Shown in pieces: positions 163 through 16,743 of a stretch of 32,000 nucleotides of DNA. The notes below the pieces were generated by a model. The model was given only the letters and a program-made list of their open reading frames with translations, had not been told where the DNA came from and made no database searches. Source of the stretch: Pseudomonas aeruginosa (GTDB lineage: Bacteria > Pseudomonadota > Gammaproteobacteria > Pseudomonadales > Pseudomonadaceae); assembly GCF_001457615.1 (NCBI RefSeq), contig NZ_LN831024.1:3240001-3272000 (forward strand), written 5' to 3'. The position numbers and the translations under genes are program-made. The stretch's first letter is position 1. Every line of letters starts with the position of its first letter.

Positions 163-2805
163 ATGCACCGATCGCTCCACACCGACCCGCCGCTGGGCGC
201 CGCCCTGCTGCTGGCCCTGCAGCTCGCTCCCGGCAGCGCCGCCGCGGCGGAGGGACAGGCGCCTGTCGACCCGCCCACGGTCCAGTTGCAACGAATCGAG
301 GTGACCGGTAGCGCGATCCGCCGGGTCGATGCGGAAACCGCGGTGCCGATCAGCGTCCTGCGCGCCGAGGAGCTGCGCCAACAGGGCGTGACCAGCACCG
401 AGGAACTGATCGGCCGGCTTTCCGGCAACCAGGGCGTATACAACTCCAGTCGCTCGGTCGGCAGCGCCACCGGCGGCGCCTCGTTCGCCGACCTGCGCGG
501 GATCGGCGCGAACAAGACCCTGGTGCTGCTCAACGGCCGGCGCCTGGCGAACAATGCCATCGACGGCTCCGCCGTGGATCTCAACACCATTCCCTTCGCC
601 GCCATCGACCGGGTCGAGGTGCTGCGCGACGGCGCCTCCGCACTGTACGGCACCGATGCCATCGGCGGGGTGATCAACTTCATCACCCGCAAGAGCCTGA
701 ACGAAGGCCGCGTCGACAGCGGCTACGCCTCCCCCACCCACGACGGCGGCGGCAACCAGCGCAACGTCAGCGCTAGCTGGGGCTTCGGCGAGCTGGAGGA
801 GGATCGCTTCAATGTCTTCGCGGTGGCCAACTACGACAAGCAGGAACGCCTCGGCGCCAAGGACCGCGGCTACACCTACAACTACCAGCCGGGACGCGGC
901 CTCGACTACAGCTCCGGCACCGCCTTCCCCGGCAACTGGAGCCAGGGCGCCAACGCCAGCAATCCGCTGGCCGCCGGCGGTTGCAAGGGCGCCGACCTGA
1001 TCCCGCGCAACGGCATCTGCCGGCAGAGCCTGTGGCGCTACCTCGACCTGGTGCCGGAAACCGAGAAGACCTCGGTGTTCAGCCGCGCCACCGGCAAGCT
1101 GGCCGACGAGCACAACGTCAGTCTGGAGTACTTCTGGTCGCGCAACGACAACGCTACCCAGGTCGGCCCAGGGACCCTCACCGGCCTGCAGATCGATCCC
1201 GGCACCGCCTTCTATCCCGGCAACGGCATCACTCCCGGTCCCGGCGGCTTCGTCCTCGACCCGAGCCGGCCGGTGGAGGTCAACTGGCGGCAGAGCGTGC
1301 TCGGGCCGCGCCTGCAATCCTCGCAGAACACCGGCCAGCGCCTGCTGCTCGGCTTCGACGGCCAGTTCGCCGGCTGGGACTACGATATCGGCGCCTCGTA
1401 CAACCAGAACAAGGTGGTCGACCATATCCACAGCGGCTACGTCGACGATCGCGCCGCCGCCCTCGGCATCGCCAACGGGACGCTGAACCCGTTCGGGCCG
1501 CAGACCGACGCCGGCCTCGCCTACCTCGGCAGCCATGCCCTGAGCGGCGACTTCCGTACCTCGGTCGGCCGCGTCAAGGGCCTGGACGCCCGCGCCAGCC
1601 GGGAGATCGGCGACTGGTTCGGCGCCGGGCCGGCGGCCCTGGCGCTGGGCGGCGAGTTCCGCAAGGAAGCGTTCCACCAGGACATCCAGGACTTCGCCGG
1701 CAACGTGCAGAGCCTCGGCGTCGATCCCGCCGCCACGGTCAGCGGCGAGCGCAACCTGAAGGCGCAGTACGCCGAACTCAACGTGCCGGTGCTGGACAGC
1801 CTGGAACTCAGCGCGGCGATCCGCCACGACAAGTACAGCGACTTCGGCAGCACCAGCAACCCGAAATATTCGTTCCGCTTCCAGCCGTTCCGCCAGTTGG
1901 TCCTGCGCGGCGCCTACAGCGAAGGTTTCCGTGCGCCGTCGCTGTACGAACTGTACAACCCGACCTTCACCACCTATACCAGCGCCAACTACGACGACCC
2001 GCGCCTGTGCGCCGGCGGCCAGCCGAGCCAGGGCGGCATCGCCAACCGCGACTGCGCCCAGCAGTTCTACAACGCCACCGGCGGCAATACCGACCTGCGA
2101 CCGGAAACCGCGCGCAACGTTACCCTGGGCCTGGTCTACCAGCCGCTGCGCGACCTTTCCGTCGGCCTGGACTTCTGGTGGATCAGGATCGCCAACCAGA
2201 TCGCCGAGTTTCCCGAAGCGGCGATCTTCGCCGACCCGCAGGCCTACGCCGGACGCATCGTGCGCAAGGCCGACGGCTCGATCGATCACGTCGTCACCGG
2301 ACTGGCCAACCTCGGCAAGGTAAAGACCAGCGGCGTCGACCTGAGCCTCGATTATCGTTTCCCGGCCAGCCGCTACGGGCAGTTCGGGCTCGACCTGCAA
2401 GGCACCTACGTGTCCCGCTACGACTTCCAGCAGCAGATCGGCGGCCAGTACCTGGACAACGTCGGCGACTTCCAGGGCGTCGGCGTGATCGCCCGCTGGA
2501 AGCACGTCGCCAACGCCACCTGGAGCCGCGACGCCTGGCAGGCCACCCTGAGCAACCGCTACACCAGCGGCTACAACGACTACAACCGCGCCAGCCACGG
2601 CAAGGTCGGCTCGTGGAACCTCTGGGACCTGGCCGGCAGCTACCGCCTCAGCCACGCGCTGGGGCTGACCCTCGGGGTGAAGAACCTGTTCGACCGCGAA
2701 CCGCCGTTCAGCAACCAGACCTACACCTTCCAGAGCGGCTACGACCCGCGCTACACCGATCCCTACGGGCGCATCCTGTTCGGCCGCCTCAGCTACAGCT
2801 TCTGA
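163..2805 (+). CDS. TonB-dependent outer-membrane receptor (plain receptor, no N-terminal signalling domain)
   Basis: 880-aa ORF with ATG at 163. Signal-peptide-like N-terminus (LLLALQLAPGSAAAAEG). Plug-domain motifs VQLQRIEVTGSAIRR and VEVLRDGASALYGTDAIGGVINFITR. Long beta-barrel region ending in the aromatic C-terminus RLSYSF. Position corresponds to PA2070 in my memory of PAO1. Confidence 0.9.
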   Translation: MHRSLHTDPPLGAALLLALQLAPGSAAAAEGQAPVDPPTVQLQRIEVTGSAIRRVDAETAVPISVLRAEELRQQGVTSTEELIGRLSGNQGVYNSSRSVGSATGGASFADLRGIGANKTLVLLNGRRLANNAIDGSAVDLNTIPFAAIDRVEVLRDGASALYGTDAIGGVINFITRKSLNEGRVDSGYASPTHDGGGNQRNVSASWGFGELEEDRFNVFAVANYDKQERLGAKDRGYTYNYQPGRGLDYSSGTAFPGNWSQGANASNPLAAGGCKGADLIPRNGICRQSLWRYLDLVPETEKTSVFSRATGKLADEHNVSLEYFWSRNDNATQVGPGTLTGLQIDPGTAFYPGNGITPGPGGFVLDPSRPVEVNWRQSVLGPRLQSSQNTGQRLLLGFDGQFAGWDYDIGASYNQNKVVDHIHSGYVDDRAAALGIANGTLNPFGPQTDAGLAYLGSHALSGDFRTSVGRVKGLDARASREIGDWFGAGPAALALGGEFRKEAFHQDIQDFAGNVQSLGVDPAATVSGERNLKAQYAELNVPVLDSLELSAAIRHDKYSDFGSTSNPKYSFRFQPFRQLVLRGAYSEGFRAPSLYELYNPTFTTYTSANYDDPRLCAGGQPSQGGIANRDCAQQFYNATGGNTDLRPETARNVTLGLVYQPLRDLSVGLDFWWIRIANQIAEFPEAAIFADPQAYAGRIVRKADGSIDHVVTGLANLGKVKTSGVDLSLDYRFPASRYGQFGLDLQGTYVSRYDFQQQIGGQYLDNVGDFQGVGVIARWKHVANATWSRDAWQATLSNRYTSGYNDYNRASHGKVGSWNLWDLAGSYRLSHALGLTLGVKNLFDREPPFSNQTYTFQSGYDPRYTDPYGRILFGRLSYSF

Positions 2806-2859
2806 TGCCGGCGCGGGCGCCCGGCCGGTATGGCCGGCAAGCCCGTCGACGGCTGTCCA

Positions 2860-2912
2860 GCTACCAGATCCGGTAGCCCTGCCAGATTTCGCAGGCGACC
2901 AGATCTGGCAGG
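2860..2912 (+). promoter_or_regulatory. Array of three abutting lux-type (las/rhl) box-like palindromes upstream of the carbamoyltransferase gene
   Basis: GCTACCAGATCCGGTAGC (2860-2877), CCTGCCAGATTTCGCAGG (2878-2895), GCGACCAGATCTGGCAGG (2895-2912). The first two fit the CT-N12-AG las/rhl consensus exactly (2861-2876, 2879-2894); the third is CG-N12-AG (2896-2911). CCTGCCAG and TCTGGCAGG are the two half-sites of the lasB OP1 box ACCTGCCAGTTCTGGCAGGT. Box centres lie about 117, 99 and 82 nt upstream of the ATG at 2985. Confidence 0.55.
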
Positions 2913-2984
2913 TTGTTGGGCTCCCGGTGCCATGCAACCTATTACGCCTCTCGCCCCCCACCCGTTCGCGCAAGAGGACACCGC

Positions 2985-4709
2985 ATGATCATTCTCGGGA
3001 TCACCAACAACGACCTGGCCGGCGCCTGCCTGGTGCGCGACGGCGGGATCGTCGCCGCCGCCAGCGAGGAGCGCTTCACCCGCCAGAAGGACCACAAGGC
3101 CTGGCCGAGCCGCTCCATCGACTATGTGCTCGGCGAGGCCGGCATCGACCTGGCCGACATCGACCGCATCGCCTACGGCTGGAACGCCGGGTTCGACGCC
3201 GGGCGGCACCTCGACCTCTATCTGGACCGGGTCCTCGAGGAAGCCCGCGAGCGTCCCGAGGGCCTGCCGCACCTGCGCAAGCGGATCGCCGACGAAATGG
3301 CCAACGACAAGGCCAAGCGCGGCGAATTCGATGCCTTCGTCCGCGCCAACGGCCTGCGCGGCAAGGTCGAGTACATCGACCATCACGAATGCCACGCCCT
3401 CGGCGCGTTCGTCTGCTCGCCGTTCGACGAGGCGCTGACCCTCACCTGCGACGGCCGCGGCGACTTCCAGTCGCTCACCGTCACCCACTACCGCGCCGAC
3501 GGCGGCGAGACGGTCCTGCAACGCGAGACCAGCGTCGACAGCCTGGGCTACTTCTACGGGCGCATCACCCGCCTGCTCGGCTTCAAGCCGAACCGCCACG
3601 AAGGCAAGATCACCGGCCTGGCGGCGTTCGGCGACGCGGAAAAGCTGCTGCCGCTGATGAACGACATGATCCGCCTGGAGAACGGCCGCCTGCGCGCCCG
3701 CTGCGGCGAACTGTACCTGCCCTCCTACGACGGCTACAGCGATCCGCTGCTGCAACGCTGCGCGGCGGAACGCCCGGCGGATGTCGCCGCTGCCGCGCAA
3801 CGGCACTCCGAAGACCTGCTGGTGGCCATCGCCCGGGAGCACGTGGCGCGCACCGGCTGCGCCAACCTGTGCCTGGCCGGCGGGGTGTTCGGCAACGTCA
3901 AGCTGAACCAGCGCCTGCGCGAGATCCCCGGGGTCCGCGATGTCTACGTGCTGCCCTGCATGGGCGACGGCGGCCTGGCCCTGGCCGCGGCGGTGGCGGT
4001 GGCCTATCGCGAGAACGGTACGCGCTTCCCGGCGCCGAGCATGGCCCTCGGGCCGGACGCGCGCAGCGCCGCGCAGAATGCCGAGCTGATCGCCAGCCAG
4101 TACCCGCAACTGGCCTACAGCCGGCCGGCCAACCTGATCGAGACGCTGGTCGAAGCGCTGCGGGAAAACCAGGTGCTGGGCATGTTCAAGGGCCGCATGG
4201 AGTTCGGCCCGCGCGCCTTGTGCAACCGCAGCATCGTCTACCATCCCGGCGATGCCAGCGCCAACGACTGGCTCAATCAGCGCATGGAACGCACCGAGTT
4301 CATGCCATTCGCCCCGGTCACCGCGGTAGAACACGCCGAGGCTTGCTACGTTGGCTGGCGTGAAGACCAGGTGGCGGCCGACTACATGACCATGACCTAC
4401 GATTGCCATGCGGATTTCCGCGCGCGCTGCCCGGCAGTGGTGCATGTCGACGGCACCGCCCGGCCGCAGATCATCCGGCCGCAGGCCGATCCGTTCATGC
4501 ACGCCCTGCTGCATGCCTGGCATGCCCGCAGCGGCCAGCCGGCGCTGATCAACACCTCCTTCAACCGCCACGAGGAACCGATCGTCTGCGCCCCGCAGGA
4601 CGCCCTCGGCGCGCTGGAGGACGGCATGGTCGACCTGGTGGTGCTGGGCGAGTCCCTGCTGGTCTGGCGCAAGGGCGAGAACGCCTTCGCCAGGGCGCGC
4701 TTCGAGTGA
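2985..4709 (+). CDS. NodU/CmcH/TobZ-family carbamoyltransferase
   Basis: 574 aa from ATG 2985, in frame with the longer ORF-track entry 2913..4709. RBS AAGAGGA at 2972-2978, 6 nt upstream. Family-typical N-terminus MIILGITNNDLAGACLVRDGGIVAAASEERFTRQKDH. Also IDHHECHALGAF, CMGDGGLALAAA and the C-terminal LINTSFNRHEEPIV. Corresponds to PA2069 from memory. Confidence 0.9.
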   Translation: MIILGITNNDLAGACLVRDGGIVAAASEERFTRQKDHKAWPSRSIDYVLGEAGIDLADIDRIAYGWNAGFDAGRHLDLYLDRVLEEARERPEGLPHLRKRIADEMANDKAKRGEFDAFVRANGLRGKVEYIDHHECHALGAFVCSPFDEALTLTCDGRGDFQSLTVTHYRADGGETVLQRETSVDSLGYFYGRITRLLGFKPNRHEGKITGLAAFGDAEKLLPLMNDMIRLENGRLRARCGELYLPSYDGYSDPLLQRCAAERPADVAAAAQRHSEDLLVAIAREHVARTGCANLCLAGGVFGNVKLNQRLREIPGVRDVYVLPCMGDGGLALAAAVAVAYRENGTRFPAPSMALGPDARSAAQNAELIASQYPQLAYSRPANLIETLVEALRENQVLGMFKGRMEFGPRALCNRSIVYHPGDASANDWLNQRMERTEFMPFAPVTAVEHAEACYVGWREDQVAADYMTMTYDCHADFRARCPAVVHVDGTARPQIIRPQADPFMHALLHAWHARSGQPALINTSFNRHEEPIVCAPQDALGALEDGMVDLVVLGESLLVWRKGENAFARARFE

Positions 4710-4752
4710 GGCGCAAACCGCAGCGAACCGGCACGGCGACGCGGGAACCGGC

Positions 4753-5916
4753 ATGTACCTGATCTTTTCCGGCTACTTCGCCGCCGAGGGGCTGATCTAT
4801 CCGTTCTGGCCGACCTGGCTGGCCAGCCTGGGCTTCGGCGCCAGCCAGATCGGCCTGTTGATCGCCGCGGCCTACTGGCCGCAGGTGATCGCCGGGGTGG
4901 CGCTGACCTACGTGGCCGACTGGCGCATCGACCAGTTGCGCCTGGCGACCCTGCTGGCGGCCCTGGCCGGCGCCTGCGCCCTGCTGTTCCAGCTGGCCGA
5001 GGGCCTGCCCCTGTTCATCGCCCTGAGCGTGCTCTACGGCGCATTCTGGACCAGCGTGCTGCCGCTCACCGAATCCTACCTGCTCAAGCGCGACAAGGCC
5101 GCCCTGCAGAACTACGGGCGGGTACGCGCAGTCGGTTCGCTGGCCTTCATCCTCACCGCGACCCTGGGCGGCCTGCTGCTCGGTCGGTTCGGCCAGCAAC
5201 TGGTGCCCGCCCTGGTCGGCCTGACGATGCTGCTCACCGCGCTGGCCTGCCTGTTCCTCCGTCGCCGCAGCCTGCGCCGTCCGGACTCGCCGCTGCCGGG
5301 CGCCAGGCGCCGTCCCGACCTGCGCGGGATCCTCCGGCAACGCCCCCTGCTGCTGGCCATCGCCGCGGCGGGAATGATCCAACTGAGCCACTCGCTGTAC
5401 TTCACCACCGCCTCGCTGGGCTGGCAGGCGCTGGGCTACTCGTCGTTCTCGGTCGGCGCCTTCTGGGGCCTGGCGGTGATCGCCGAGATCAGCTTCTTCG
5501 CCGTCTCCAACCGCATCCTGGACCGCCACCCGGCGCTCCAGGTGATGCTCTTCTCCAGCCTTTGCGCGGCGCTGCGCTGGGGCCTGCTGGCCGGCAGCGA
5601 ACATCTCGCCGCGATCCTCCTCGGCCAGTGCCTGCACGCCCTCAGCTTCGCCGCCTACCACGCCGCGGTGATGCGCTACATCCGCGACCACGCGCCGGAA
5701 AGCGCGCGGGTACTGACCCAGGGAATCTACTACTCTCTGGCGGTAGCGCTGCCCATGGGCCTCGCCAGTCCGGCCGCCGGCTGGCTGTACGAAGGCCTGC
5801 CGCAGTGGTCCTATCTGATCATGGCGCTGTTCGCCCTCGGCGGCGCGGTCCTGGTCTGGCTTGCCCTACAGAGTGCCCGAGATGCATCGACTAGCGTTTT
5901 CAGCCGTTCTGTTTGA
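4753..5916 (+). CDS. MFS transporter (12-TM, LacY/HcaT-like MFS_1_like type)
   Basis: 387 aa with ATG at 4753, 43 nt after the carbamoyltransferase stop. Hydrophobic throughout. N-terminal GYFAAEGLIYPFWPTWLASLGF resembles the first TM signature of the MFS_1_like family. A central charged loop (RRRSLRRPDSPLPGARRRPDLR) separates two 6-TM halves. Confidence 0.85.
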   Translation: MYLIFSGYFAAEGLIYPFWPTWLASLGFGASQIGLLIAAAYWPQVIAGVALTYVADWRIDQLRLATLLAALAGACALLFQLAEGLPLFIALSVLYGAFWTSVLPLTESYLLKRDKAALQNYGRVRAVGSLAFILTATLGGLLLGRFGQQLVPALVGLTMLLTALACLFLRRRSLRRPDSPLPGARRRPDLRGILRQRPLLLAIAAAGMIQLSHSLYFTTASLGWQALGYSSFSVGAFWGLAVIAEISFFAVSNRILDRHPALQVMLFSSLCAALRWGLLAGSEHLAAILLGQCLHALSFAAYHAAVMRYIRDHAPESARVLTQGIYYSLAVALPMGLASPAAGWLYEGLPQWSYLIMALFALGGAVLVWLALQSARDASTSVFSRSV

Positions 5917-6586
5917 CATGGACGGCGTCCTGATCAGCTCCCGCGAAGCCATCGCCGCGGCCTGGAGCCGGGTCGCCGGCGAACAGGGCGTGGCGCTCGG
6001 CCCGGACTGCCTGCGCGACCACGTGCACGGTCGCCCGGGCGGCTACACCCTGGACTATCTGTTCGGCCACCTGCCGATGGAGCGCCGGCGGATCCTCAAG
6101 CAACGGGTCGATGCGCTGGAGGAAGGCGCCGACTGTCCCCTGCTGCCCGGCGTCGCCGCGGTGATCCGCCAGCTGCGTTGGCTGGACGTGCCCTTGGCGC
6201 TGGTCACCAGCAGTTGGCCGGCACGCATCGACCACGTGCTGCGCCAGCACGACCTGCAGGCGGCGTTCCGCACCCTGGTCAGCCGCGACGACGTGGTCCA
6301 CGGCAAGCCGGCTCCGGATGGCTATCGCCTGGCCGCGGCCAGGCTCGGCGTGGCACCGTCGCGCTGCCTGGTGTTCGAAGACTCCCTCAGCGGCGTGCAG
6401 GCCGCCTGTGCCGCCGGCGCGACCTGCGTGGCGATCGGCGAGGAGAGCGGCCTGCTCGCCGCCGGCGCGCGCTGGTCGGTCCGGGATTTCCGCGAGCTAC
6501 GGATCGTCCGCGAAGACGACCGGCTGTACTGCCAGCATCGGCACCCCGCCACGACCGGCAGCGAGAGGAGCGTTGGCGTCCCATGA
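5882..6586 (+). CDS. HAD-superfamily hydrolase/phosphatase (subfamily IA)
   Basis: HAD motif I LFDMDGVLISS, motif II LVTSS, motif IV FEDSLSGVQAA. The ORF-track start at 5861 is a TTG, so I prefer ATG 5882 (MHRLAFSAV...). Either start overlaps the MFS gene end (5916) out of frame. The stop overlaps the next gene start in ATGA (6583-6586). Confidence 0.85.
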   Translation: MHRLAFSAVLFDMDGVLISSREAIAAAWSRVAGEQGVALGPDCLRDHVHGRPGGYTLDYLFGHLPMERRRILKQRVDALEEGADCPLLPGVAAVIRQLRWLDVPLALVTSSWPARIDHVLRQHDLQAAFRTLVSRDDVVHGKPAPDGYRLAAARLGVAPSRCLVFEDSLSGVQAACAAGATCVAIGEESGLLAAGARWSVRDFRELRIVREDDRLYCQHRHPATTGSERSVGVP

Positions 6587-7221
6587 GCCCGACCCTGCAA
6601 GATGCCCGGCTGCTCTGGGACTTCCTCGGCCAGGGCCGCTGCCATGTGCCCTGCGAACTGCTGGTGGTATGCGGCTCCTACGACCTGCGGGTCTGCGACC
6701 ACGCCTGCGAGCTGCTCGAACGCGGCCTCGCCGAACGCCTGCTGTTCACCGGCAACACCGGGCACTGGACGCGCCATCTCTGGGTCGAGCCGGAAGCCGA
6801 GCTGTTCGCCCGCCACGCCAGGGCACGCGGGGTAAGCGACAGCCTCATCGTGATCGAGCCGCGGGCGACCAACTTCGCCGAGAACATCGCCTTCGCCCGC
6901 GAGCTGTTCCCCGACCTGCGCCGCGCGACCTTCGTCACCAAGCCCAACTCGATCCGCCGCGTGGCGCTGACCCTGCCGGTCCGCTGGCCGGGTCTGGAGG
7001 GACACGTGGATGCGCCCGACTACGCATTTCCCGACGGCATCTCGAACCTGGTCGGCGTACTCGGGGTGATCGACGAGATGGTCGGCGACCTTGACCGCAT
7101 CATGCGTTACCCGGCGCTGGGCTTCCAGGTCGCCTGCCCGATCCCGGCGCAGGTCATGGACGCCTGGGAACGCCTGGTGGCGCGCGGTTTCGACCGCCAC
7201 CTGGTGAACCCGCCGCGCTGA
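6583..7221 (+). CDS. DUF218 / YdcF-like protein
   Basis: 212 aa from ATG 6583, in frame within ORF 6178..7221. RBS GAGAGGAG at 6562-6569. Shares the ATGA overlap with the HAD stop. DUF218-like core LVVCGSYDLRV...LLFTGNTGH...EAELFARHARARGVSDSLIVIEPRATNFAENIAFAREL. Confidence 0.8.
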   Translation: MSPTLQDARLLWDFLGQGRCHVPCELLVVCGSYDLRVCDHACELLERGLAERLLFTGNTGHWTRHLWVEPEAELFARHARARGVSDSLIVIEPRATNFAENIAFARELFPDLRRATFVTKPNSIRRVALTLPVRWPGLEGHVDAPDYAFPDGISNLVGVLGVIDEMVGDLDRIMRYPALGFQVACPIPAQVMDAWERLVARGFDRHLVNPPR

Positions 7222-7223
7222 GC

Positions 7224-7238
7224 TGACAGCACTGTAAT
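7224..7238 (+). promoter_or_regulatory. cop/Cus-type box (putative CopR-family response-regulator site) upstream of pcoA
   Basis: TGACAGCACTGTAAT has the same half-site spacing as the E. coli CusR box (TGACAAnnTTGTCA) and ends in the TGTAAT typical of pco/cop boxes. It lies about 130 nt upstream of the pcoA ATG, followed by possible -35 TTGCCG (7251-7256) and -10 TAGGGT (7272-7277). Confidence 0.5.
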
Positions 7239-7369
7239 CTTCCCCACAGCTTGCCGACAGGCGCGCGCCGCTAGGGTGTCCGCATCGCCGCACCGCCCTG
7301 GCGGGGCCGCGACTTCCCGGCTGCGCAGGCTCGCGCAGTCCGTCCTGCCACCTGCGTGGAAACCAGCGG

Positions 7370-9214
7370 ATGCACAGAACTTCGCGACGCACCTTCGTCA
7401 AAGGCCTCGCCGCCACCGGTCTGCTCGGCGGACTGGGTCTCTGGCGCGCCCCGGCCTGGGCCCTGGCCGGGCCGGGCCAGCAGAACCTGCTCGCCGGCGA
7501 CAGTTTCGACCTGTTCATCGGCGAGACCCCGGTGAACCTCAGCGGCTCGCCGGCCACCGCCATGACCATCAACGGTTCGCTGCCCGGCCCGACCCTGCGC
7601 TGGCGCGAAGGCGACAACGTGACCCTGCGGGTGCGCAACCGCCTCGCCGAGGACACCTCGATCCACTGGCACGGCATCATCCTGCCGGCCAACATGGATG
7701 GCGTGCCGGGCCTCAGCTTCGAGGGCATCGCTCCCGGCGGTCTCTACGAATACCGCTTCAAGGTCCGGCAGAACGGCACCTACTGGTACCACAGCCACTC
7801 GGGGCTACAGGAGCAGGCCGGGGTCTACGGCGCCCTGGTGATCGACGCCCGCGAGCCGGAACCGTTCAGCTACGACCGCGACTACGTGGTGCTGCTCAGC
7901 GACTGGTCGGACGAGAAGCCGCAGCGCATCCTCGCCAAGCTGAAGAAGCAGTCCGACTACTACAACTTCCACAAGCGCACCGTCGGCGACTTCATCGACG
8001 ACGTCAGCGCCAACGGCTGGGCCGCGACCCTGGCCGACCGCAAGATGTGGGCCGAGATGAAGATGAGTCCCACCGATCTCGCCGACGTCAGCGGCTACAC
8101 CTATACCTACCTGCTCAACGGACAGCCGCCGGACGGCAACTGGACCGGCCTGTTCCGCCCCGGCGAAAAGCTCCGCCTACGCTTCGTCAACGCCTCGGCG
8201 ATGAGCTATTTCGACGTCCGCATTCCCGGCCTGAAGATGACCGTGGTGGCCGCCGACGGACAGCACGTCGAGCCGGTCAGCGTCGACGAGTTGCGCATCG
8301 CCGTGGCCGAGACCTACGACGTGATCGTCGAACCGGGCGGCGAGCGCGCCTATACCCTCTTCGCCCAGTCCATGGACCGCAGCGGCTACGCCCGCGGCAC
8401 CCTGGCGCTGGCCGAAGGGCTTAGCGCGCCGGTGCCGACGCCCGATCCGCGCCCGCTGATCGGCATGGACGACATGGGCATGGGCGGCATGGACCACGGC
8501 GCCATGGGGCATGGCGCGGCGACGAGGCCCGCCAGCGAGATGGACCATTCGAAGATGTCGGGCATGGACATGAATGGCATGGACCATTCGAAGATGGCCG
8601 GCATGGACATGAACGGCATGGACCACTCCAAGATGGCCGGCATGGACCACTCCAGGATGGGCATGGACACCATGCCGATGCAGTCCCATCCGGCTTCGGA
8701 GGACGGCAACCCGCTGGTCGACATGCAGACCATGACGCCGACACCGAAGCTCGCCGACCCCGGCCTCGGGCTGCGCGACAACGGGCGGCGGGTGCTGACC
8801 TACGCCGACCTGCGCAGCCGCTTCGCCGACCCGGACGGCCGCGAACCGGGGCGCACCATCGAGCTGCACCTGACCGGGCACATGGAGAAGTTCGCCTGGT
8901 CCTTCGACGGCATCAAGTTCTCCGACGCCGAGCCGCTACGCCTGACCTACGGCGAGCGCCTGCGGATCGTCCTGGTCAACGACACCATGATGACCCACCC
9001 GATCCACCTGCACGGCATGTGGAGCGACCTGGAGGACGAGCAAGGCAATTTCCTGGTGCGCAAGCACACCATCGACATGCCGCCGGGCACCCGCCGCAGC
9101 TACCGGGTCACCGCCGACGCCCTGGGACGCTGGGCCTATCACTGCCACCTGCTGTTCCACATGGAGATGGGCATGTTCCGCGAAGTGCGGGTAGACGAAG
9201 GAGACAACGCATGA
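7370..9214 (+). CDS. pcoA: Copper-resistance multicopper oxidase (CopA/PcoA), Tat-exported
   Basis: 614 aa. Twin-arginine signal [31 protein letters not shown]. Copper-ligand motifs HWHG, WYHSH, HPIHLHG and [12 protein letters not shown]. Met/His-rich insert ([13 protein letters not shown] repeats). Confidence 0.95.
8540..8668 (+). repeat. In-frame 39-bp tandem repeat encoding the Met-rich Cu(I)-binding motif of PcoA
   Basis: Units at 8540-8578 and 8579-8617 (atggaccattcgaagatg..ggcatggacatgaa.ggc) differ at 3 positions. A third, diverged and partial unit lies at 8618-8668. They encode MDHSKM(S/A)GMDMNG twice, then [17 protein letters not shown]. Confidence 0.85.
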
Positions 9215-10266
9215 GCCGCCAGCCGAAACCCGCCCGCCTGGCCGGCGGTGCCCTCGCCCTGGGTCTGCTGCTGGGCCTGCCGAATCCCGTCGAGGCCGCG
9301 CAGGACAATGGCATGGACCACTCGGCCATGGACCACGGCGCGATGCCTGGCATGGACCACGGCCAGAGGACCTCCGCCCCGGCGAAACCCATGGACCACC
9401 AGGGGATGGGGCATGGCCGGATGCCGGGGATGGACCACGGCACCGCATCGCCCGCCCCGGCACAGCCCATGGAGCACCAGGGAATGGACCATGGCCGGAT
9501 GCCGGGGATGAGCCGCGCTGCGCGGCAACCTCCGGCGCAGGCCGCGCCCAGCCAGAGCCGTACGCCGATCCCGGTGCCGACCGAGGCCGACCGCCGTGCC
9601 GCCTTTCCGCCGCTGGAGGGGCACAAGGTGCACGACAGCGCGCTGAACAGCTTCTTCCTGCTCGACCAGTTGGAATACCAGGACGCCGACGACGGCAGCG
9701 CGCTGGCCTGGGACGCCAGCGGCTGGATCGGCGGCGACATCAACCGCCTGTGGCTGCGCAGCGAAGGCGAACGGCTCGACGGCAAGACCGAGGACGCCGA
9801 GGTCCAGGCGCTGTTCGGGCACGCCATCGGTCCCTGGTGGGACCTGGTCGCCGGCGTGCGCCAGGATTTCAAGCCCGGCTCGCCGCAGACCTGGGCGGCG
9901 TTCGGCGTGCAGGGCCTGGCGCTCTACGACTTCGAGGCGGAAGTCACCGCCTTCCTCGGCGAGAACGGCCAGAGCGCGCTGCGCCTGGAGGGCGAGTACG
10001 ACATCCTGTTGACCAACCGGCTGATCCTCCAGCCCAGCGCCGAGGTCAACCTGTACGGCAGGAACGATCCCGCCCGCGGCATCGGTTCGGGCCTTGCCGA
10101 TAGCGAGCTGGGCCTGCGCCTGCGCTATGAGATCCGTCGCGAGTTCGCGCCCTACATCGGGGTGACCTGGAACCGCTCCTACGGCAACAGCGCCGACCTG
10201 GCCCGCGCCGAGGGCGAGGACGACGACGAGGCGCGCTTCGTCGCCGGTATCCGCATGTGGTTCTGA
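9211..10266 (+). CDS. pcoB: Copper-resistance outer-membrane protein (CopB/PcoB)
   Basis: 351 aa from ATG 9211. ATGA overlap with the pcoA stop (9211-9214). Signal peptide [21 protein letters not shown]. Met/His-rich N-terminal region ([17 protein letters not shown]). C-terminal beta-barrel ending in [10 protein letters not shown]. Confidence 0.9.
9388..9510 (+). repeat. Two 45-bp near-identical coding segments 78 bp apart in the PcoB Met/His-rich region
   Basis: 9388-9432 and 9466-9510 match at 41 of 45 positions by my alignment. They encode [15 protein letters not shown] and [15 protein letters not shown]. Confidence 0.75.
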
Positions 10267-10285: not shown

Positions 10286-11509
10286 CTAGCGGTAGCCGTC
10301 GAGCAACGGCGAATCGTCGATGAGGTCGCAGCGTTCCAGCGCTGGCAGGTTGCACGGCCGGTAGTCGGGGCATTCGTCCAGCCGCCGCTGCACCGAACGG
10401 TGCAGCTTGACCCGGGTTTCCTGCCCGACCGGTTCCAGCGGCCGCGAGCGCGGCCGGCCACGCGACCAGCGCCAGGCGCGGTTGCCGCTGCGGCGGTCCC
10501 AGACCAGCAGCGGCAGCCACTCGGCCAGGCGCCAGGGCCGGGTCATCACCGGCAGGATCGGCGCGGTCGGGTCCGGGCCCTGCTTCGAACGTGCGCGCAA
10601 CTGGTCGCGGCTGCGCGCCGGGTCGACATGCAGGCCGGCCTCCAGCGCCTCGCCGAGCATCCAGGTAAAGGCCACCAGAGCCAGCCGCGAGTCCTTCGGC
10701 GCATAGCCACCGCCGACATCGGAGTGCATGCCGGGGAACCACACCTGCAACACGTCGGACTTGCGGTCCTTCTCGCCGAACCAGAGGTTCTGCCGGAAGA
10801 AGCAGCGGCATTCGTCGATGGCCAGGGCCTGGCGGACCACGTCGACCATTTCGTTGTTCGAGGAATACGGCACGGTCAGCGGGTCGTAGACCCAGCCCAC
10901 CGAGGTCACGGTGTCGAACAGGCCGAGGAAGTGCACCTTCACCTGCCGGCCGAAGACCTTGCGGAAGCGTCCCAGCAGGCCGAAGTCCGGTCCGCGGCGA
11001 CGCGTGCCGGCCCGCTTGTCTTCGTCGCGGGGCGGCATGCGGGTGGTGAGCAGGGTCCAGGCGTAGTCGAAGAGGTGCGGCTGGTGCGCATCGATCAGGC
11101 CCACCGCGCGCAGCATCGCGGCCAGCACCCGCACCGCGTAGGCCCCGCGGGAAAAGCCGAAGAGGAATATCTGGTCGCCGGGCCGGTAGTGCTCGGCAAG
11201 GAAGCGATAGGCGCCCTCGACGTTGCGCTTGAGCCCCCAGCCGAAGGCCAGGCCGGCGATCCGCGAGGGAAACTTCTGCCACTCGAACAGGGTTTCCTTC
11301 AGGCCGAAGGTGCCGACGCCCTGGTCGTAGTAGGCCAGCACCCTGCGCGGATCGCGCGACAGCGAGCGGTACAGGCGCACCACGTTGGTCGGCTGGTCGC
11401 CGAAGCGGTTCGAGGTTCCGTCGATGCAGACCACCAACTGGCGCGGCGCGTCGTTGTCCTGGGCGCTGCCGGCAGGCGGCAAGGCGGAATCGGGGGAGAG
11501 ATCGTCCAT
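10286..11509 (-). CDS. DUF2235 alpha/beta hydrolase (T6SS Tle1-like phospholipase fold), orphan
   Basis: 407 aa from ATG 11509; the ORF-track start at 11620 is a TTG extension. DUF2235 hallmarks: VVCIDGTSNRFG, YYDQGVGT, nucleophile elbow LFGFSRGAYAVR (GxSxG) and WFPGMHSDVGGGY. No signal peptide. Confidence 0.8.
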   Translation of the reverse strand: MDDLSPDSALPPAGSAQDNDAPRQLVVCIDGTSNRFGDQPTNVVRLYRSLSRDPRRVLAYYDQGVGTFGLKETLFEWQKFPSRIAGLAFGWGLKRNVEGAYRFLAEHYRPGDQIFLFGFSRGAYAVRVLAAMLRAVGLIDAHQPHLFDYAWTLLTTRMPPRDEDKRAGTRRRGPDFGLLGRFRKVFGRQVKVHFLGLFDTVTSVGWVYDPLTVPYSSNNEMVDVVRQALAIDECRCFFRQNLWFGEKDRKSDVLQVWFPGMHSDVGGGYAPKDSRLALVAFTWMLGEALEAGLHVDPARSRDQLRARSKQGPDPTAPILPVMTRPWRLAEWLPLLVWDRRSGNRAWRWSRGRPRSRPLEPVGQETRVKLHRSVQRRLDECPDYRPCNLPALERCDLIDDSPLLDGYR

Positions 11510-11618
11510 TGGGCTCACGCAGGCAAAGCCTGACTTCCGTCGGCGGTGGATGGGAATGGCGACGCATGATACCCAACCTGGATGATCCGCCAAGCGCACA
11601 TTGCCGGGAAATGGCGGC

Positions 11619-11648
11619 AAAGACGAAAAGCCCCTGGAGCCGCAGGGC
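11619..11648 (-). terminator. Candidate intrinsic terminator after the IscS-like gene
   Basis: Minus-strand sequence GCCCTGCGGCTCCAGGGGCTTTTCGTCTTT. This is a GC-rich stem (GCCCTG/CAGGGGC, one bulge) with a 6-nt loop, followed by a U-rich tract, about 65 nt after the stop at 11712. Confidence 0.4.
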
Positions 11649-11711: not shown

Positions 11712-12893
11712 TCAGCCTGCCCTGGATACCCCGAGGAACGGCTGCCACGCCGGCGCGCCACTATCCGCCGCGGCCTTGAGGGCGGCCACCGCCGCGTCGA
11801 CGTCGGCCTCGCGGGTGTAGCGACCGAGGCTCAGGCGCACGCTGCGGCCAGCGCTGGCGGCATCGTGGCCGAGGGCGAGAAGCACGTGGGACGGCGCCGG
11901 CCGCGCCGAGTTGCAGGCCGAGGTGCTGGACACCGCCAGGCTGGACTCCAGTGCCTGGGGGACAAAGGCCGGGTTGTCGAAGGTCAGGTTCAGGGTATGC
12001 GCGATGCGTGCGTCGGCGCTGCCGTTCAGGCGCCAGCCGTCGATCTGCGCCAGCCCCTCCAGCAGACGCCGCTGGAGTCCGGCGATGCGCCTGCCCTCCT
12101 CCTCGAAAAGCTCGCCGGCGAGGGCGAAGGCCTCGCCCATACCGACGATCTGGTGGGTCGCCAGGGTCCCGGAACGCAGGCCCTGCTCGTGTCCGCCGCC
12201 GTGGATCTGCGCCTTCAGCCGCCGCTCGGCGCGCGGCCCGACGTACAACGCGCCGATGCCCTTGGGCCCGTAGGTCTTGTGTGCGGAGAACGACATCAGG
12301 TCCACCGCCAGGCGGCCCAGGTCGATCGCCACCTTGCCGCTGGCCTGCGCCGCGTCGACGTGGAACAGCGCGCCGCGCTCGCGCACCCGTTCGCCGATGG
12401 CGGCGATGTCGGTCAGGGTGCCGAGTTCGTTGTTGACCCGCATCAGCGACACCAGGCGGGTATCGGCGCGCCAGGCCGCCTCCACCTGTTCCGGCCGGAT
12501 CAGGCCATCGGTGCCGGGCGCCAGCCAGGTCACGCTCCAGCCGTCATCGGCGAGTTGCTGCACGGTGTCCAGCACCGCCTTGTGCTCCAGGCGACTGGTG
12601 ATCAGGTGGCCGGGTGCGTCCAGCGCCTGGGCCACGCCCTTGAGGGCCAGGTTGTTGGATTCGGTGGCGCCGGAAGTCCAGACGATCTGCCCGGCGCTGG
12701 CGCCGACCAGCGCGGCCACCTGCTCCCTGGCCCGCTCCACTGCCCGCCGCGCCTGGCGGCCGTAGGCATGGGAATTCGACGCGGGATTGCCAAAACACGC
12801 CTGGTAGCCGAGACACTCCACCATGGCCCGGATCACGCGCTCGTCCACGGGCGTGGTGGCGGCGTAATCGAAGTACAACGGTAACGAACTCAT
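11712..12893 (-). CDS. IscS/NifS-like class-V PLP enzyme (cysteine desulfurase family)
   Basis: 393 aa with ATG at 12893 and RBS GGGGGA upstream. IscS-like N-terminus [20 protein letters not shown]-lysine motif [18 protein letters not shown]. Catalytic-cysteine loop [22 protein letters not shown], compared with IscS SSGSACTS. Confidence 0.9.
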
Positions 12894-13038: not shown

Positions 13039-14649
<1,611 letters not shown>

Positions 14650-14650
14650 C

Positions 14651-15667
14651 TCATGTCCTCGGATCGAAGGCGTCGCGCACCGCTTCGCCGATGAACACCA
14701 GCAAGCTGAGCAAGGTCGCCAGGACCACGAACACGGTCAGCCCGAGCCAGGGCGCCTGGAGGTTGTCACGGCCCTGCCCGACCAGTTCGCCAAGGCTCGG
14801 CGAGCCGGGCGGCAGGCCGAAACCGAGGAAGTCCAGGGCGGTCAGGGTGGTCACCGCGCCACAGAGCAGGAACGGCAGGAAGGTCAGGGTCGCGACCATG
14901 GCGTTGGGCAGGATGTGCCGGAACATCACCCCGGCGTCGCCGAGGCCGAGGGTCCGCGCCGCCTTGACGTACTCCAGGTGACGACCGCGCAGGAACTCGG
15001 CGCGAACCACGTCGACCAGGCTGGTCCAGGAGAACAGCAGCATGATCGCCAGCAGCCAGCCGACCCCGGGCTGCACCAGGCTGGCGAGGATGATCAGCAG
15101 GTAAAGCATCGGCAGACCCGACCAGACCTCGATGAAGCGCTGGCCGAACAGGTCGATCCAGCCGCCGTAGTAGCCCTGCACCGCGCCTGCGCAGATTCCC
15201 AGCAACGACGAGGCCAGGGTCAGGCCGAGGGCGAAGAGAATCGACAGGCGCAGGCCGTAGATCACCCGCGCGAGCACATCGCGGCCCTGGTCGTCGGTAC
15301 CCAGCCAGTTCTCCGCCGAGGGCGGCGCCGGCGCCGGGCGCGCGTAGTTGATGCTGCGGGCGTCGAAGCGGATCGGCGGCCACAGCGCCCAGCCGTCGCG
15401 GGCGATGCGTTCGCTCATGAAGCGGCCGCGGTAGTCCGGCGGGAACGGCAGCTCGCCGCCGAAGGCGGTTTCCGGATAGTCCCGCAGCACCGGCAGGAAC
15501 CACTGGCCACGGTATTCCAGCAGCAGCGGGCGGTCGTTGGCGATCAGCTCGGCGAACAGGCAGGTGACGAACAGCGCGAGGAACAGCAGCAGGGCCAGGC
15601 GCCCGCGGCGGTTGGCGCGGAACGCGGCGAGGCGGCGGCGGTGCAGCGGGGAAAGGACGATGGCCAT
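14651..15667 (-). CDS. sppC: ABC transporter permease (YejE-like, peptide/opine family)
   Basis: 338 aa, polytopic. Contains an EAA-type loop (VKAARTLGLGDAGVMFRHILPNA). There is a 1-nt gap to each neighbouring gene. Confidence 0.9.
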   Translation of the reverse strand: MAIVLSPLHRRRLAAFRANRRGRLALLLFLALFVTCLFAELIANDRPLLLEYRGQWFLPVLRDYPETAFGGELPFPPDYRGRFMSERIARDGWALWPPIRFDARSINYARPAPAPPSAENWLGTDDQGRDVLARVIYGLRLSILFALGLTLASSLLGICAGAVQGYYGGWIDLFGQRFIEVWSGLPMLYLLIILASLVQPGVGWLLAIMLLFSWTSLVDVVRAEFLRGRHLEYVKAARTLGLGDAGVMFRHILPNAMVATLTFLPFLLCGAVTTLTALDFLGFGLPPGSPSLGELVGQGRDNLQAPWLGLTVFVVLATLLSLLVFIGEAVRDAFDPRT

Positions 15668-15668
15668 C

Positions 15669-16742: not shown

Positions 16743-16743
16743 G

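Follow-up and report, generated by a model that had tools for sequence, protein, structure and literature searches.

Among the closest known relatives of the Pseudomonas aeruginosa carbamoyltransferase PA2069 are TobZ, the monomeric class III 6''-O-carbamoyltransferase of tobramycin and kanamycin, and GdmN, NovN and VtdB, the O-carbamoyltransferases of polyketides and aminocoumarins. With TobZ, PA2069 shares its length class (574 versus ~570 aa), a Kae1-like plus YrdC-like fold (TM 0.71-0.74, 28% identity), the HxxxH/D/D metal site, conserved C-terminal domain motifs and the lack of a dimerisation tail. However, it has Asn-Asn-Asp in place of His14 and a longer three-helix insertion (residues 72-121, confidently modelled by AF2), and it is encoded outside an antibiotic gene cluster and always together with a HAD phosphatase. 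Its best sequence and fold matches are VtdB (4.5e-62), NovN (4.9e-61) and GdmN (6e-55), at TM 0.76-0.79, whose iron ligands and Gly-Arg oxyanion hole are identical to those of PA2069. In contrast to PA2069, all three retain the catalytic histidine and act as tailoring enzymes within large biosynthetic clusters, and GdmN and NovN possess a dimerisation domain of ~100 aa and a hydrophobic pocket. NodU, the Nod-factor 6-O-carbamoyltransferase, has Pfam families in common with PA2069 and acts on a sugar hydroxyl. PA2069 itself was rejected as a NodU, as it scores 119 bits against the NodU equivalog NF041651 (cutoff 1000) and no nod genes are present.

Small solutes can be made by two-step synthase/phosphatase routes, such as OtsA/OtsB for trehalose and glucosylglycerol-phosphate synthase/phosphatase. 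The locus described here may be analogous, as it strictly pairs a group-transfer enzyme with a dedicated HAD phosphatase, would start from a primary phospho-metabolite and has no other pathway genes, although a carbamoyl rather than a glycosyl group would be transferred. The last protein of the locus, PA2066, resembles E. coli YdcF (3CA8) in being soluble and single-domain, at only 20% identity, whereas SanA and ElyC, which published work places in envelope biogenesis, are membrane-anchored DUF218 proteins of another architecture.

Operon structure and quorum-sensing control

The window, the whole 32,000-nucleotide stretch of P. aeruginosa DNA that was analysed, contains the operon PA2069-PA2068-PA2067-PA2066 (Table 1), whose encoded proteins match P. 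aeruginosa database entries exactly. A sequence-only reading of this DNA had described four tightly packed genes on one strand, and all of its coordinates were verified: a 43-nt gap separates the carbamoyltransferase and MFS genes, the HAD and MFS genes overlap by 35 nt (or by 56 nt from an alternative TTG start at 5861), and the HAD stop and DUF218 start share ATGA. Pseudomonas kribbensis, Chromobacterium and Sorangium share the gene order and the 35-nt overlap, and P. kribbensis also the ATGA junction, so the tight packing is not due to chance. Pfam likewise backs each of the earlier gene family calls, and a Pfam scan of the window ORFs found no NRPS, PKS or glycosyltransferase near the cassette, in agreement with the reading. 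As it had also stated, no product has been named, in that no paper in the searchable literature gives one for the operon.

Table 1 Features of the operon and its upstream region, in positions of the window
Feature	Position	Strand	Description
TonB-dependent receptor PA2070	163-2805	same strand as cassette	Pfam TonB_dep_Rec 4.9e-47 plus Plug domain
First lux-type palindrome (candidate)	2861-2876		CTACCAGATCCGGTAG, CT-N12-AG; read from sequence
RhlR motif	2876-2896		GCCCTGCCAGATTTCGCAGGC; single exact match in window; 89 nt upstream of PA2069 ATG
Second lux-type box	2879-2894		CTGCCAGATTTCGCAG; read from sequence
Third CCAGAT-containing palindrome (putative half-consensus lux box)	2897-2912		CGACCAGATCTGGCAG; read from sequence
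Carbamoyltransferase PA2069	2985-4709	+	574 aa; class III (TobZ/NodU-type); ATG 2985, TGA 4709
MFS transporter PA2068	4753-5916	+	387 aa; HcaT/nucleoside/LacY-like; ATG 4753, TGA 5914-5916
HAD-IA phosphatase PA2067	5882-6586	+	234 aa; sugar-phosphate phosphatase/beta-phosphoglucomutase-like group; ATG 5882, TGA 6584-6586
YdcF-type DUF218 protein PA2066	6583-7221	+	212 aa; cytoplasmic; ATG 6583, stop 7221

The lux-type boxes noted previously were confirmed, two of them upstream of PA2069. Published ChIP-seq data give the 'PA14_37745 operon', whose expression shows a 34-fold RhlR-dependent change, an RhlR peak (PMC10732425) that was observed again in PMC13192270; the motif of this peak, GCCCTGCCAGATTTCGCAGGC, falls by exact match upon the second box, with occupancy taken from the literature. 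The CT-N12-AG boxes and this published occupancy place the operon among those regulated by LuxR-type proteins (RhlR/LasR). The first palindrome is not among the motifs of the published RhlR ChIP table. Published work further assigns the operon to RhlR plus PqsE class II regulation, validated by RT-qPCR, reports that PA2066-PA2069 are all repressed together by a quorum-sensing inhibitor, and lists PA14_37745/60/70/80 within the core lasR regulon. The earlier view of the cassette as one density-controlled unit is thus borne out by the RhlR site, the joint repression and the core lasR regulon, although density control is already published and is not new. According to this literature, RhlR, aided by PqsE, binds the box at 2876-2896 and turns on all four genes at high cell density.

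A mobile module of a carbamoyltransferase and a HAD phosphatase

PA2069 belongs to a distinct 'NND' carbamoyltransferase clade that extends over four phyla at 50-72% identity. Synteny was counted over 24 loci carrying this clade, P. aeruginosa included, from Pseudomonas, Vreelandella, Chromobacterium, Sorangium, Streptomyces, Kitasatospora, Saccharothrix, Umezawaea, Vibrio, Photobacterium, Aliivibrio, Xenorhabdus, Cedecea and Tenacibaculum. This comparison of neighbourhoods, which the sequence-only reading had proposed, identified an orthologous HAD gene as the invariant partner (24/24), while an MFS gene of one of two non-orthologous types adjoins the carbamoyltransferase in 17 loci and is missing in seven, a DUF218 gene adjoins it in nine (15/24 are without one) and a TonB receptor only in P. 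aeruginosa (1/24). PA2067-type HAD genes were found near none of ~63 more distant carbamoyltransferase homologues. Flanking genes differ in every genus and include no recurrent gene for a biosynthetic scaffold, and no scaffold-building enzyme travels with the module in any of the 24 loci, which fits the earlier suggestion that an existing primary metabolite is modified. The P. aeruginosa operon represents a local form of a small module that moves horizontally and has the carbamoyltransferase clade and the HAD-IA phosphatase as its invariant core, with DUF218 as an add-on. It is this comparative picture of the module that is new, its regulation having been known beforehand.

The receptor gene PA2070 ends 179 nt upstream of the cassette on the same strand, and the sequence-only reading had joined the two into one secretion and re-import system, resembling a siderophore cycle, in which the receptor takes the product back up. 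The shared strand and short distance favour such a joint system, as does the resemblance of PA2070 to haem and siderophore receptors in NCBIfam, where all matches lie below the curated cutoffs. However, in the other 23 loci the cassette has no adjacent receptor gene, no receptor homologue was matched by tblastn in 87 loci, the RhlR box stands between receptor and cassette, and PA2070 is missing from the quorum-regulated gene lists that include PA2066-PA2069; published work links it instead to metal uptake signalling and biofilm antibiotic tolerance. As it is adjacent only in P. aeruginosa, the receptor is an unrelated neighbour outside the module, and a common re-import cycle is scarcely credible.

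The invariant partner, PA2067 (Pfam Hydrolase/HAD_2, ~1e-26), carries the four motifs of HAD-IA phosphatases (D12-M-D14, T109, K142 and E166-D167), all invariant across eight orthologues, and scores 79.6 bits against TIGR01509 (cutoff 29.4). The motif set is complete only with the ATG 5882 (or TTG 5861) start, as the 222-aa version of many database entries (ATG 5918) would remove the nucleophile Asp12. In the PDB and NCBIfam, its neighbours are phosphatases of sugars, hexitols and pseudouridine, its nearest characterised relatives include nucleotide phosphatases, and its score against the beta-phosphoglucomutase/YqaB subfamily TIGR02009 is 110.7 bits, below the cutoff of 153. Judged by its sequence, PA2067 is related to beta-phosphoglucomutase/YqaB enzymes and is assignable to no named sugar phosphatase. 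Overexpression of PA2067 failed to relieve glycerol-3-phosphate stress in published work, which excludes one simple substrate.

PA2068 is an MFS protein, as had been called (Pfam MFS_1_like 1.2e-48, Nuc_H_symport 1.6e-11; 162.8 bits against the cutoff of 100 of the generic MFS model NF037955), whereas the role in product export also proposed for it would sit less easily with its nearest relatives, which are HcaT, nucleoside and LacY-type importers. It scores 216 bits against HcaT (NF008346), below the cutoff of 259 for 3-phenylpropionate transporters, and 51 bits against the SET sugar efflux model, and its sole solved relative is YegT. This kinship with uptake systems runs against a pathway ending in export. 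As the families nearest to PA2068 (HcaT, Nuc_H_symport, LacY and YegT) are proton symporters for uptake, the cassette might instead handle an imported or foreign compound, with a hydroxylated nucleoside, sugar or antibiotic taken up by the MFS and its hydroxyl then masked for detoxification, resistance or salvage; class III carbamoyltransferases can modify aminoglycosides (TobZ), and the hosts of the module are competitive, antibiotic-rich taxa among which it moves horizontally. However, the invariant partner is a dedicated phosphatase rather than a kinase or hydrolase, which indicates an endogenous phosphorylated precursor. In addition, PA2068 is replaced by a non-orthologous MFS_1 protein in the actinomycetes and Tenacibaculum, and the transporter is missing in seven loci, as is typically seen for exporters that accompany biosynthetic genes. 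Expression in P. aeruginosa responds to cell density, and the regulation papers cited here identify no inducing substrate. Import followed by masking is accordingly decidedly unlikely. Since no transporter gene is linked to the cassette in the Vibrionaceae, Xenorhabdus and Cedecea, export is not an obligatory step.

The carbamoyltransferase active site and a proposed pathway

PA2069 (Pfam Carbam_trans_N 1.7e-42, Carbam_trans_C 1.2e-54), whose exact database match is named 'carbamoyltransferase [P. aeruginosa]', combines an N-terminal Kae1-like and a C-terminal YrdC-like domain in one chain, the class III architecture. Its PDB sequence matches to VtdB, NovN, GdmN and TobZ range from 1e-51 to 1e-62, and its AF2 model (pLDDT 85.7) aligns with the same four enzymes at Foldseek TM 0.71-0.79. 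The metal site of GdmN consists of H133, H137, D156 and D333, alongside a Gly-Arg oxyanion hole (PMC9633730). In PA2069, which carries DHHECHA, CDGRGD and MGDGG, the metal-site and oxyanion residues H133/H137/D156/G157/R158/D328 are invariant across 15 orthologues and 80 homologous loci, and the C-terminal motifs GRxEFGPRAL-NRS, RxxFxPFAP, HVDGTxRxQ and NTSFN align with VtdB and NovN. The clade thus keeps the TobZ/GdmN metal ligands and carbamoyl-AMP motifs. In contrast, the general-base histidine (TobZ H14, GdmN H27) is missing, as PA2069 reads G-I-T-N-N-D-L-A there and N8-N9-D10 is invariant in its orthologues. The catalytic residues on which the sequence-only reading had made its case depend are therefore partly in place, with metal ligands and oxyanion residues kept and the general base lost.

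This substitution bears on whether PA2069 O-carbamoylates anything, or instead carbamoylates an amine or thiol or only makes carbamoyl-AMP. The H27N mutant of GdmN is inactive (PMC9633730), the best-scoring TobZ entry of the PDB for PA2069 is an H14N variant, and HMMER pairs N9 with the Asn of the H14N variant 3VEX. However, an ungapped alignment puts the invariant D10 at the histidine position, where it could act as base, and all remaining active-site residues are conserved. Moreover, the wider family of uncharacterised carbamoyltransferases varies greatly at the general-base position (H, K, N, Y, I, D/E), so the histidine is not universal. With the histidine absent, a different base, for example D10, may serve in O-carbamoyl transfer, or the carbamoyl group may go to an acceptor other than a hydroxyl, but an enzyme that O-carbamoylates nothing seems very improbable. 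The GdmN paper links the absence of a C-terminal dimerisation domain to polar acceptors, and the lack of a GdmN-type tail in PA2069 suggests, by analogy, a polar acceptor here.

The core of carbamoyltransferase and phosphatase probably makes a small carbamoylated molecule. The YrdC-like domain would form carbamoyl-AMP from carbamoyl phosphate and ATP, and the Kae1-like domain would pass the carbamoyl on to a hydroxyl group of some small and polar compound. Primary metabolism would supply this compound as a phosphate ester; sugar, polyol and nucleoside phosphates are the likeliest candidates. The HAD enzyme may take off the phosphate first, which would free the hydroxyl for carbamoylation, or only once the carbamoyl group is in place, comparable to the order in OtsA/OtsB. 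The MFS, where present, would export the neutral carbamate ester, and in Pseudomonas and the Halomonadaceae the YdcF-like protein may be an accessory enzyme that acts on this pool of metabolites. Taken as a whole, this model of a self-contained module under RhlR control, in which a phosphorylated primary metabolite is converted into a carbamate ester that has lost the phosphate and is usually exported, has, in our judgement, slightly better than an even chance of being correct. Its bolder form, an unrecognised mobile two-enzyme pathway that swaps a metabolite's phosphate for a carbamate by a form of the TobZ mechanism that dispenses with the histidine, with an RhlR-controlled, secreted product and PA2066 as a pathway enzyme, is tentative, its chances falling well short of even. 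If true, P. aeruginosa would make an undiscovered RhlR-controlled secreted small molecule, and the type VI 'toxin' behaviour reported for PA2066 would be a side effect of overexpressing a pathway enzyme.

PA2066 and the type VI toxin claim

PA2066 belongs to the DUF218/YdcF family (PF02698, E 2.9e-12, 47.1 bits against a cutoff of 27.6), the sole strong fold match of its AF2 model (pLDDT 94.3) is E. coli YdcF (3CA8; E 1e-10, TM 0.80), and no hydrophobic N-terminal segment was found in its sequence. A DUF218 gene is also paired with the orthologous HAD in Stigmatella, in a 14.7-kb locus in which no carbamoyltransferase gene was called. The sequence-only reading was made without knowledge of the published putative type VI toxin status of PA2066.

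According to that proposal, PA2066 is an H2 type VI toxin carried in the Hcp2 tube and PA2067 its immunity protein, as a kinase/phosphatase pair, so that the last two genes would encode a toxin-immunity unit and no pathway enzymes. In Howard et al. 2021 (PMC8262886), PA2066 is tenfold enriched in an Hcp2 cross-link pulldown, co-purifies with Hcp2-His, no longer binds after substitution of a conserved threonine of the inner ring and, tagged at its N-terminus, lowers E. coli survival by 2-log. Later published work treats PA2066 as an effector gene, and the H2-T6SS operon is also an RhlR target (PMC10732425) and would be co-expressed with it. However, the HAD orthologue partners the carbamoyltransferase in the 15 loci, out of 24, that lack any DUF218 gene, a pattern unlike effector-immunity inheritance, so its primary role cannot be immunity to PA2066. 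PA2066 is the last, translationally coupled (ATGA) gene of a metabolic operon, P. kribbensis and Vreelandella have an orthologous DUF218 gene at the same place, no immunity candidate lies downstream, where pcoA follows after 148 nt, and the fold matches YdcF alone, a nucleotide/SAM-binding protein, and no kinase. PMC8262886 describes the Hcp2-PA2066 complex as weak and lost on gel filtration, and toxicity as varying with tag position, and the passages of it covered here contain no secretion or competition assay. The published toxin and immunity claim fits the synteny poorly, and we regard it as unlikely.

No vgrG, hcp, PAAR or adaptor genes were found among the window ORFs scanned, although Hcp-borne effectors need no such linkage. 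The Hcp2 binding and E. coli toxicity described in PMC8262886 are left unexplained by the pathway model. The minus strand carries a Tle1-like DUF2235 gene 3 kb from the cassette, at 10286-11620.

Conservation of the carbamoyltransferase–phosphatase module

The receptor and the cassette genes, which are PA2070 and PA2069–PA2066 by the PAO1 map and by agreeing gene descriptions in papers, encode five proteins that are exact matches to Pseudomonas aeruginosa proteins. The tight packing first read from the sequence was correct in every figure: a 43-nt gap separates the carbamoyltransferase and MFS genes, the HAD gene overlaps the MFS gene by 35 nt (56 nt from the TTG), and the HAD stop and DUF218 start overlap in ATGA. 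The genes around the cassette likewise included no NRPS, PKS or glycosyltransferase among the window ORFs, as claimed. A promoter and terminator scan of 2700–7450 gave no prediction, such a scan being uninformative in DNA of 69% GC (the window averages ~69%).

Features of the window
Feature	Position	Strand	Support
TonB-dependent receptor (PA2070)	163-2805	+	strong Pfam support
CT-N12-AG palindrome, first	2861-2876
CT-N12-AG palindrome, second	2879-2894
Motif under the RhlR ChIP-seq peak	2876-2896
Three lux-type palindromes together	2861-2912
Carbamoyltransferase (PA2069)	2985-4709	+	strong Pfam support
MFS transporter (PA2068)	4753-5916	+	strong Pfam support
HAD hydrolase (PA2067)	5882-6586	+	strong Pfam support
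DUF218 protein (PA2066)	6583-7221	+	strong Pfam support
pcoA and pcoB	7370-10266
Tle1-like phospholipase	10286-11620	-	DUF2235, 2.8e-77
Class V aminotransferase	11712-12893
Oligopeptide-type ABC transporter	13039-18552	-
Second TonB-dependent receptor	18556-21513	-

Among the taxa with a PA2069 homologue of 50–72% identity are Pseudomonas species, Vreelandella, Chromobacterium, Xylophilus, Sorangium, Streptomyces, Kitasatospora, Vibrio, Photobacterium, Xenorhabdus and Pantoea. Eighty genomic loci were fetched by profile and seven by exact protein, and were searched with the window's proteins; the synteny set comprises the 24 loci, window included, whose carbamoyltransferase has an Asn-Asn-Asp (NND) motif (each species is represented by one genome, with a few additional records, and adjacency is set by tblastn thresholds). 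An orthologous HAD gene (37–59% identity) is adjacent in all 24, an MFS gene in 17 (11 of the PA2068 type and six encoding a different MFS_1 protein, in actinomycetes and Tenacibaculum) and DUF218 in nine, from Pseudomonas and Vreelandella only. The carbamoyltransferase/DUF218 pair, singled out for neighbourhood analysis in the sequence-only reading, thus stands in these nine loci but is missing from the others, where the HAD persists. The TonB receptor, which that reading had included in the cassette system, is adjacent in the window only (1 of 24) and is irrelevant to the module.

None of the ~63 more distant carbamoyltransferase homologues (33–53% identity, lacking NND) has this HAD nearby. 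A metagenome scan with the HAD profile returned only paralogues of ≤42% identity, none of which had a carbamoyltransferase, DUF218 or MFS gene nearby, and in that scan generic HAD-IA genes were not linked to carbamoyltransferases. The cassette flanks differ in each genus, and no scaffold-building gene recurs in those of the NND loci. By gene order, the carbamoyltransferase–HAD linkage is obligate in these loci and free of scaffold genes. P. kribbensis, Chromobacterium and Sorangium have exactly the same 35-nt MFS/HAD overlap, and P. kribbensis also has the ATGA junction. The Vibrionaceae and Xenorhabdus loci lack a transporter and have, after a divergent LysR gene, the carbamoyltransferase gene, a conserved 79-aa ORF and the HAD gene. 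The Cedecea unit comprises just LysR, the carbamoyltransferase and the HAD; nothing there matches the 79-aa ORF, and the genes on either side are unrelated. In Stigmatella aurantiaca, an orthologous HAD gene (48% identity) adjoins an orthologous DUF218 gene (57%; locus L088, 6282-8522), and no carbamoyltransferase gene was called in this 14.7-kb locus; in Fluviispira, DUF218 stands alone. The HAD, present at every NND locus and paired with DUF218 in Stigmatella, is therefore the hub, with separate links to the carbamoyltransferase and to the YdcF-like protein.

Several minor features were observed at the comparison loci. The 79-aa ORF has no Pfam match and is 43–84% identical across Photobacterium, Aliivibrio, Vibrio and Xenorhabdus (L085 9715-9954, L014 3208-3444, L033 9930-10172, L084 9721-9942). 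In Photobacterium (L085) and Xenorhabdus (L084), its two ends run a few bases into the adjoining genes. In Xenorhabdus sp. TH1 (L084 9950-11734), a DDE_3 transposase gene (10287-11327) splits the HAD gene, and the module is therefore probably inactivated. The Stigmatella pair is followed by an NTP_transf_2/DUF4037 nucleotidyltransferase-like gene. In Streptomyces sp. TG1A-8 (L081 4052-7156), the cassette diverges from a set of methionine-salvage genes, which encode an MtnA-MtnB fusion, acireductone dioxygenase and an enolase-phosphatase-like hydrolase; a link to methionine salvage was dropped, as five further actinomycete loci lacked this arrangement, which is probably coincidental.

Predicted active sites and the proposed pathway

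The best solved relatives of PA2069 are VtdB, NovN, GdmN and TobZ (E 1e-51 to 1e-62, ~28% identity), and its AlphaFold model (pLDDT 85.7) superposes full-length on all four (TM 0.71–0.79). Together with the C-terminal domain signature motifs, which are present, sequence, fold and predicted metal ligands uphold the TobZ/NodU-type assignment as a putative class III enzyme; at 119 bits, short of the cutoff of 1000 in the curated NodU model, PA2069 is not NodU itself. Compared with TobZ, it has an insertion at residues 72–121. In GdmN, H133, H137, D156 and D333 bind iron, G157/R158 form the oxyanion hole, and H27, whose Asn mutant is dead, is the general base (PMC9633730). PA2069 carries DHHECHA, CDGRGD and MGDGG, all invariant among orthologues, but lacks the base histidine. 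The catalytic residues, the integrity of which the sequence-only reading had made decisive, are therefore retained for the metal-ligand and oxyanion motifs and missing for the general base, such that PA2069 resembles the superfamily in fold and metal ligands yet fails one defining catalytic feature, and its carbamoyl-AMP-type site is predicted to be complete apart from the base. In its N-terminal loop, GITNNDLAGACL, residues N8, N9 and D10 are invariant; N9 and D10 are the candidates for the equivalent of TobZ His14 in an alignment made without coordinates, and among TobZ entries the top score belongs to 3VEX, the H14N variant. As this position is very variable in the wider, uncharacterised family (H, K, N, Y, I, D/E), loss of the histidine is not proof of inactivity and would instead mark a mechanistic variant. 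For enzymology, a TobZ-type protein that naturally lacks the catalytic histidine makes a useful case, and such an active site is not described in the literature searched.

PA2067 is a predicted HAD-IA phosphatase that appears intact, with all four catalytic motifs present. Among characterised enzymes it is most closely related to sugar, hexitol and pseudouridine phosphatases and to beta-phosphoglucomutase, and it reached no cutoff among the curated equivalog models; a published test with glycerol-3-phosphate was negative, and this is an unlikely substrate. Many database entries are 222 aa long and start at ATG 5918, just past the MFS stop, which removes Asp12, the catalytic nucleophile of the invariant FDMDG motif. 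Because of this loss, and because the upstream residues A8, F11 and D12 are conserved across genera, the overlapping ATG 5882 is the real start and the common annotation is too short. Database HAD+DUF218 'fusion' proteins were rejected, their sequences showing them to be frameshifted P. aeruginosa assemblies.

We infer that a phosphorylated primary metabolite is the source of the acceptor. The architecture of the enzyme and the relatives of the HAD make a polar phosphate of a sugar, polyol or nucleoside probable; PA2069 lacks the C-terminal dimerisation domain, an absence that the GdmN authors linked to polar acceptors such as aminoglycosides. PA2067 may act first, exposing a hydroxyl that is then carbamoylated, or second, dephosphorylating a carbamoylated intermediate by analogy with synthase/phosphatase pairs. 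Symporters of the HcaT, nucleoside and LacY types are the nearest relatives of PA2068, which would export the product; sugar-efflux SET proteins match it less well. The transporter is optional in the module, and its non-orthologous replacement and absence in some lineages are more in keeping with an exporter added to a biosynthetic core than with a specific importer. If a secreted carbamoylated metabolite is indeed made, it would be a new compound among those that an important pathogen makes under quorum control, and a function would be defined for a module common to Streptomyces, Vibrio, Chromobacterium and myxobacteria. The stand-alone carbamoyltransferase–phosphatase module, found across four phyla, is not described in the literature searched.

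PA2066 and the type VI secretion annotation

The AlphaFold model of PA2066 (pLDDT 94.3) has one strong fold match, E. coli YdcF (TM 0.80), the remainder being weak, generic Rossmann-like similarity. The fold search was needed for this match, as a sequence search against the PDB gave only chance METTL3 hits (E ~0.1). PA2066 differs from SanA and ElyC in having no hydrophobic N-terminal segment in its sequence. Its invariant residues include D34, D39, E92 and K120.

In Howard et al. (PMC8262886), PA2066 is the top Hcp2-specific interactor, its co-purification with Hcp2 is weak, its toxicity in E. coli is tag-dependent, and PA2067 is speculated to confer immunity to it, the two forming a kinase/phosphatase pair; PA2066 was counted as a T6SS effector gene in later clinical genomics. 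Hcp2 binding itself is contradicted by neither synteny nor fold, and the H2-T6SS is likewise an RhlR target (PMC10732425), so PA2066 could conceivably have both roles, bound to Hcp2 and in the pathway. A toxin–immunity pair is nonetheless unlikely: the HAD is kept with the carbamoyltransferase where DUF218 is missing, which argues against an immunity role, and a kinase was rejected for PA2066, whose fold matches include none. The comparative evidence suggests that the effector label needs direct testing, and its conflict with synteny is not described in the literature searched.

The genes beyond the cassette comprise a copper-resistance pair, a Tle1-like DUF2235 gene and a class V aminotransferase. 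The Tle1-like (T6SS) phospholipase gene lies 3 kb from PA2066, with no vgrG, hcp or PAAR nearby among the ORFs scanned in the window. Directly after the cassette come pcoA (multicopper oxidase) and pcoB (CopB domain); the longest CopB ORF starts at 9019, overlapping the end of pcoA (9214), and the true pcoB start is therefore probably later.

Quorum regulation of the cassette

The PA2070–PA2069 intergenic region contains two CT-N12-AG palindromes and a third, CCAGATCTGG, palindrome. The 21-mer GCCCTGCCAGATTTCGCAGGC, which occurs once in the window, is the motif under the RhlR ChIP-seq peak of the 'PA14_37745 operon', for which a 34-fold RhlR-dependent change was reported (PMC10732425), and the peak was found again in a 2026 study (PMC13192270). 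PA2069 is a class II gene, activated by RhlR and boosted by PqsE, with RT-qPCR validation (PMC9241726). PA2066, PA2067, PA2068 and PA2069 are jointly lowered by a published quorum-sensing inhibitor, and all four PA14 orthologues belong to the published core lasR regulon of clinical isolates. The population-density control suggested by the lux-type boxes is thus borne out, RhlR-dependent activation of the cassette being established by the published site, RhlR/PqsE activation and co-regulation. Co-regulation of the four genes is documented; the literature searched yielded no direct proof that they form a single transcript. No lux-type palindromes were found upstream of the cassettes of Chromobacterium, Sorangium, Vreelandella and P. 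kribbensis, and quorum control therefore looks like an overlay specific to P. aeruginosa.

The locus and its density control are already known. Literature on the cassette consists of expression lists, a PQS-probe pulldown, a T6SS study and the negative glycerol-3-phosphate test; no product or phenotype of PA2069–PA2066 or the PA14 orthologues was found in the literature searched, consistent with the earlier decision to leave the product unnamed. The operon is a long-standing known unknown of P. aeruginosa quorum sensing, now with sharper testable predictions. A PQS photoaffinity probe captured PA2069 in the wild type and not in pqsR or rhlR mutants (PMC5674140), which may reflect merely its quorum-dependent abundance or, alternatively, may represent alkylquinolone binding.

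The three CCAGAT-containing palindromes abut within 52 bp, and the RhlR ChIP-seq motif is listed for the middle one only. The receptor adjoining the cassette lacks an STN signalling domain; a second TonB-dependent receptor in the window carries one and adjoins the oligopeptide-type ABC transporter and the class V aminotransferase.
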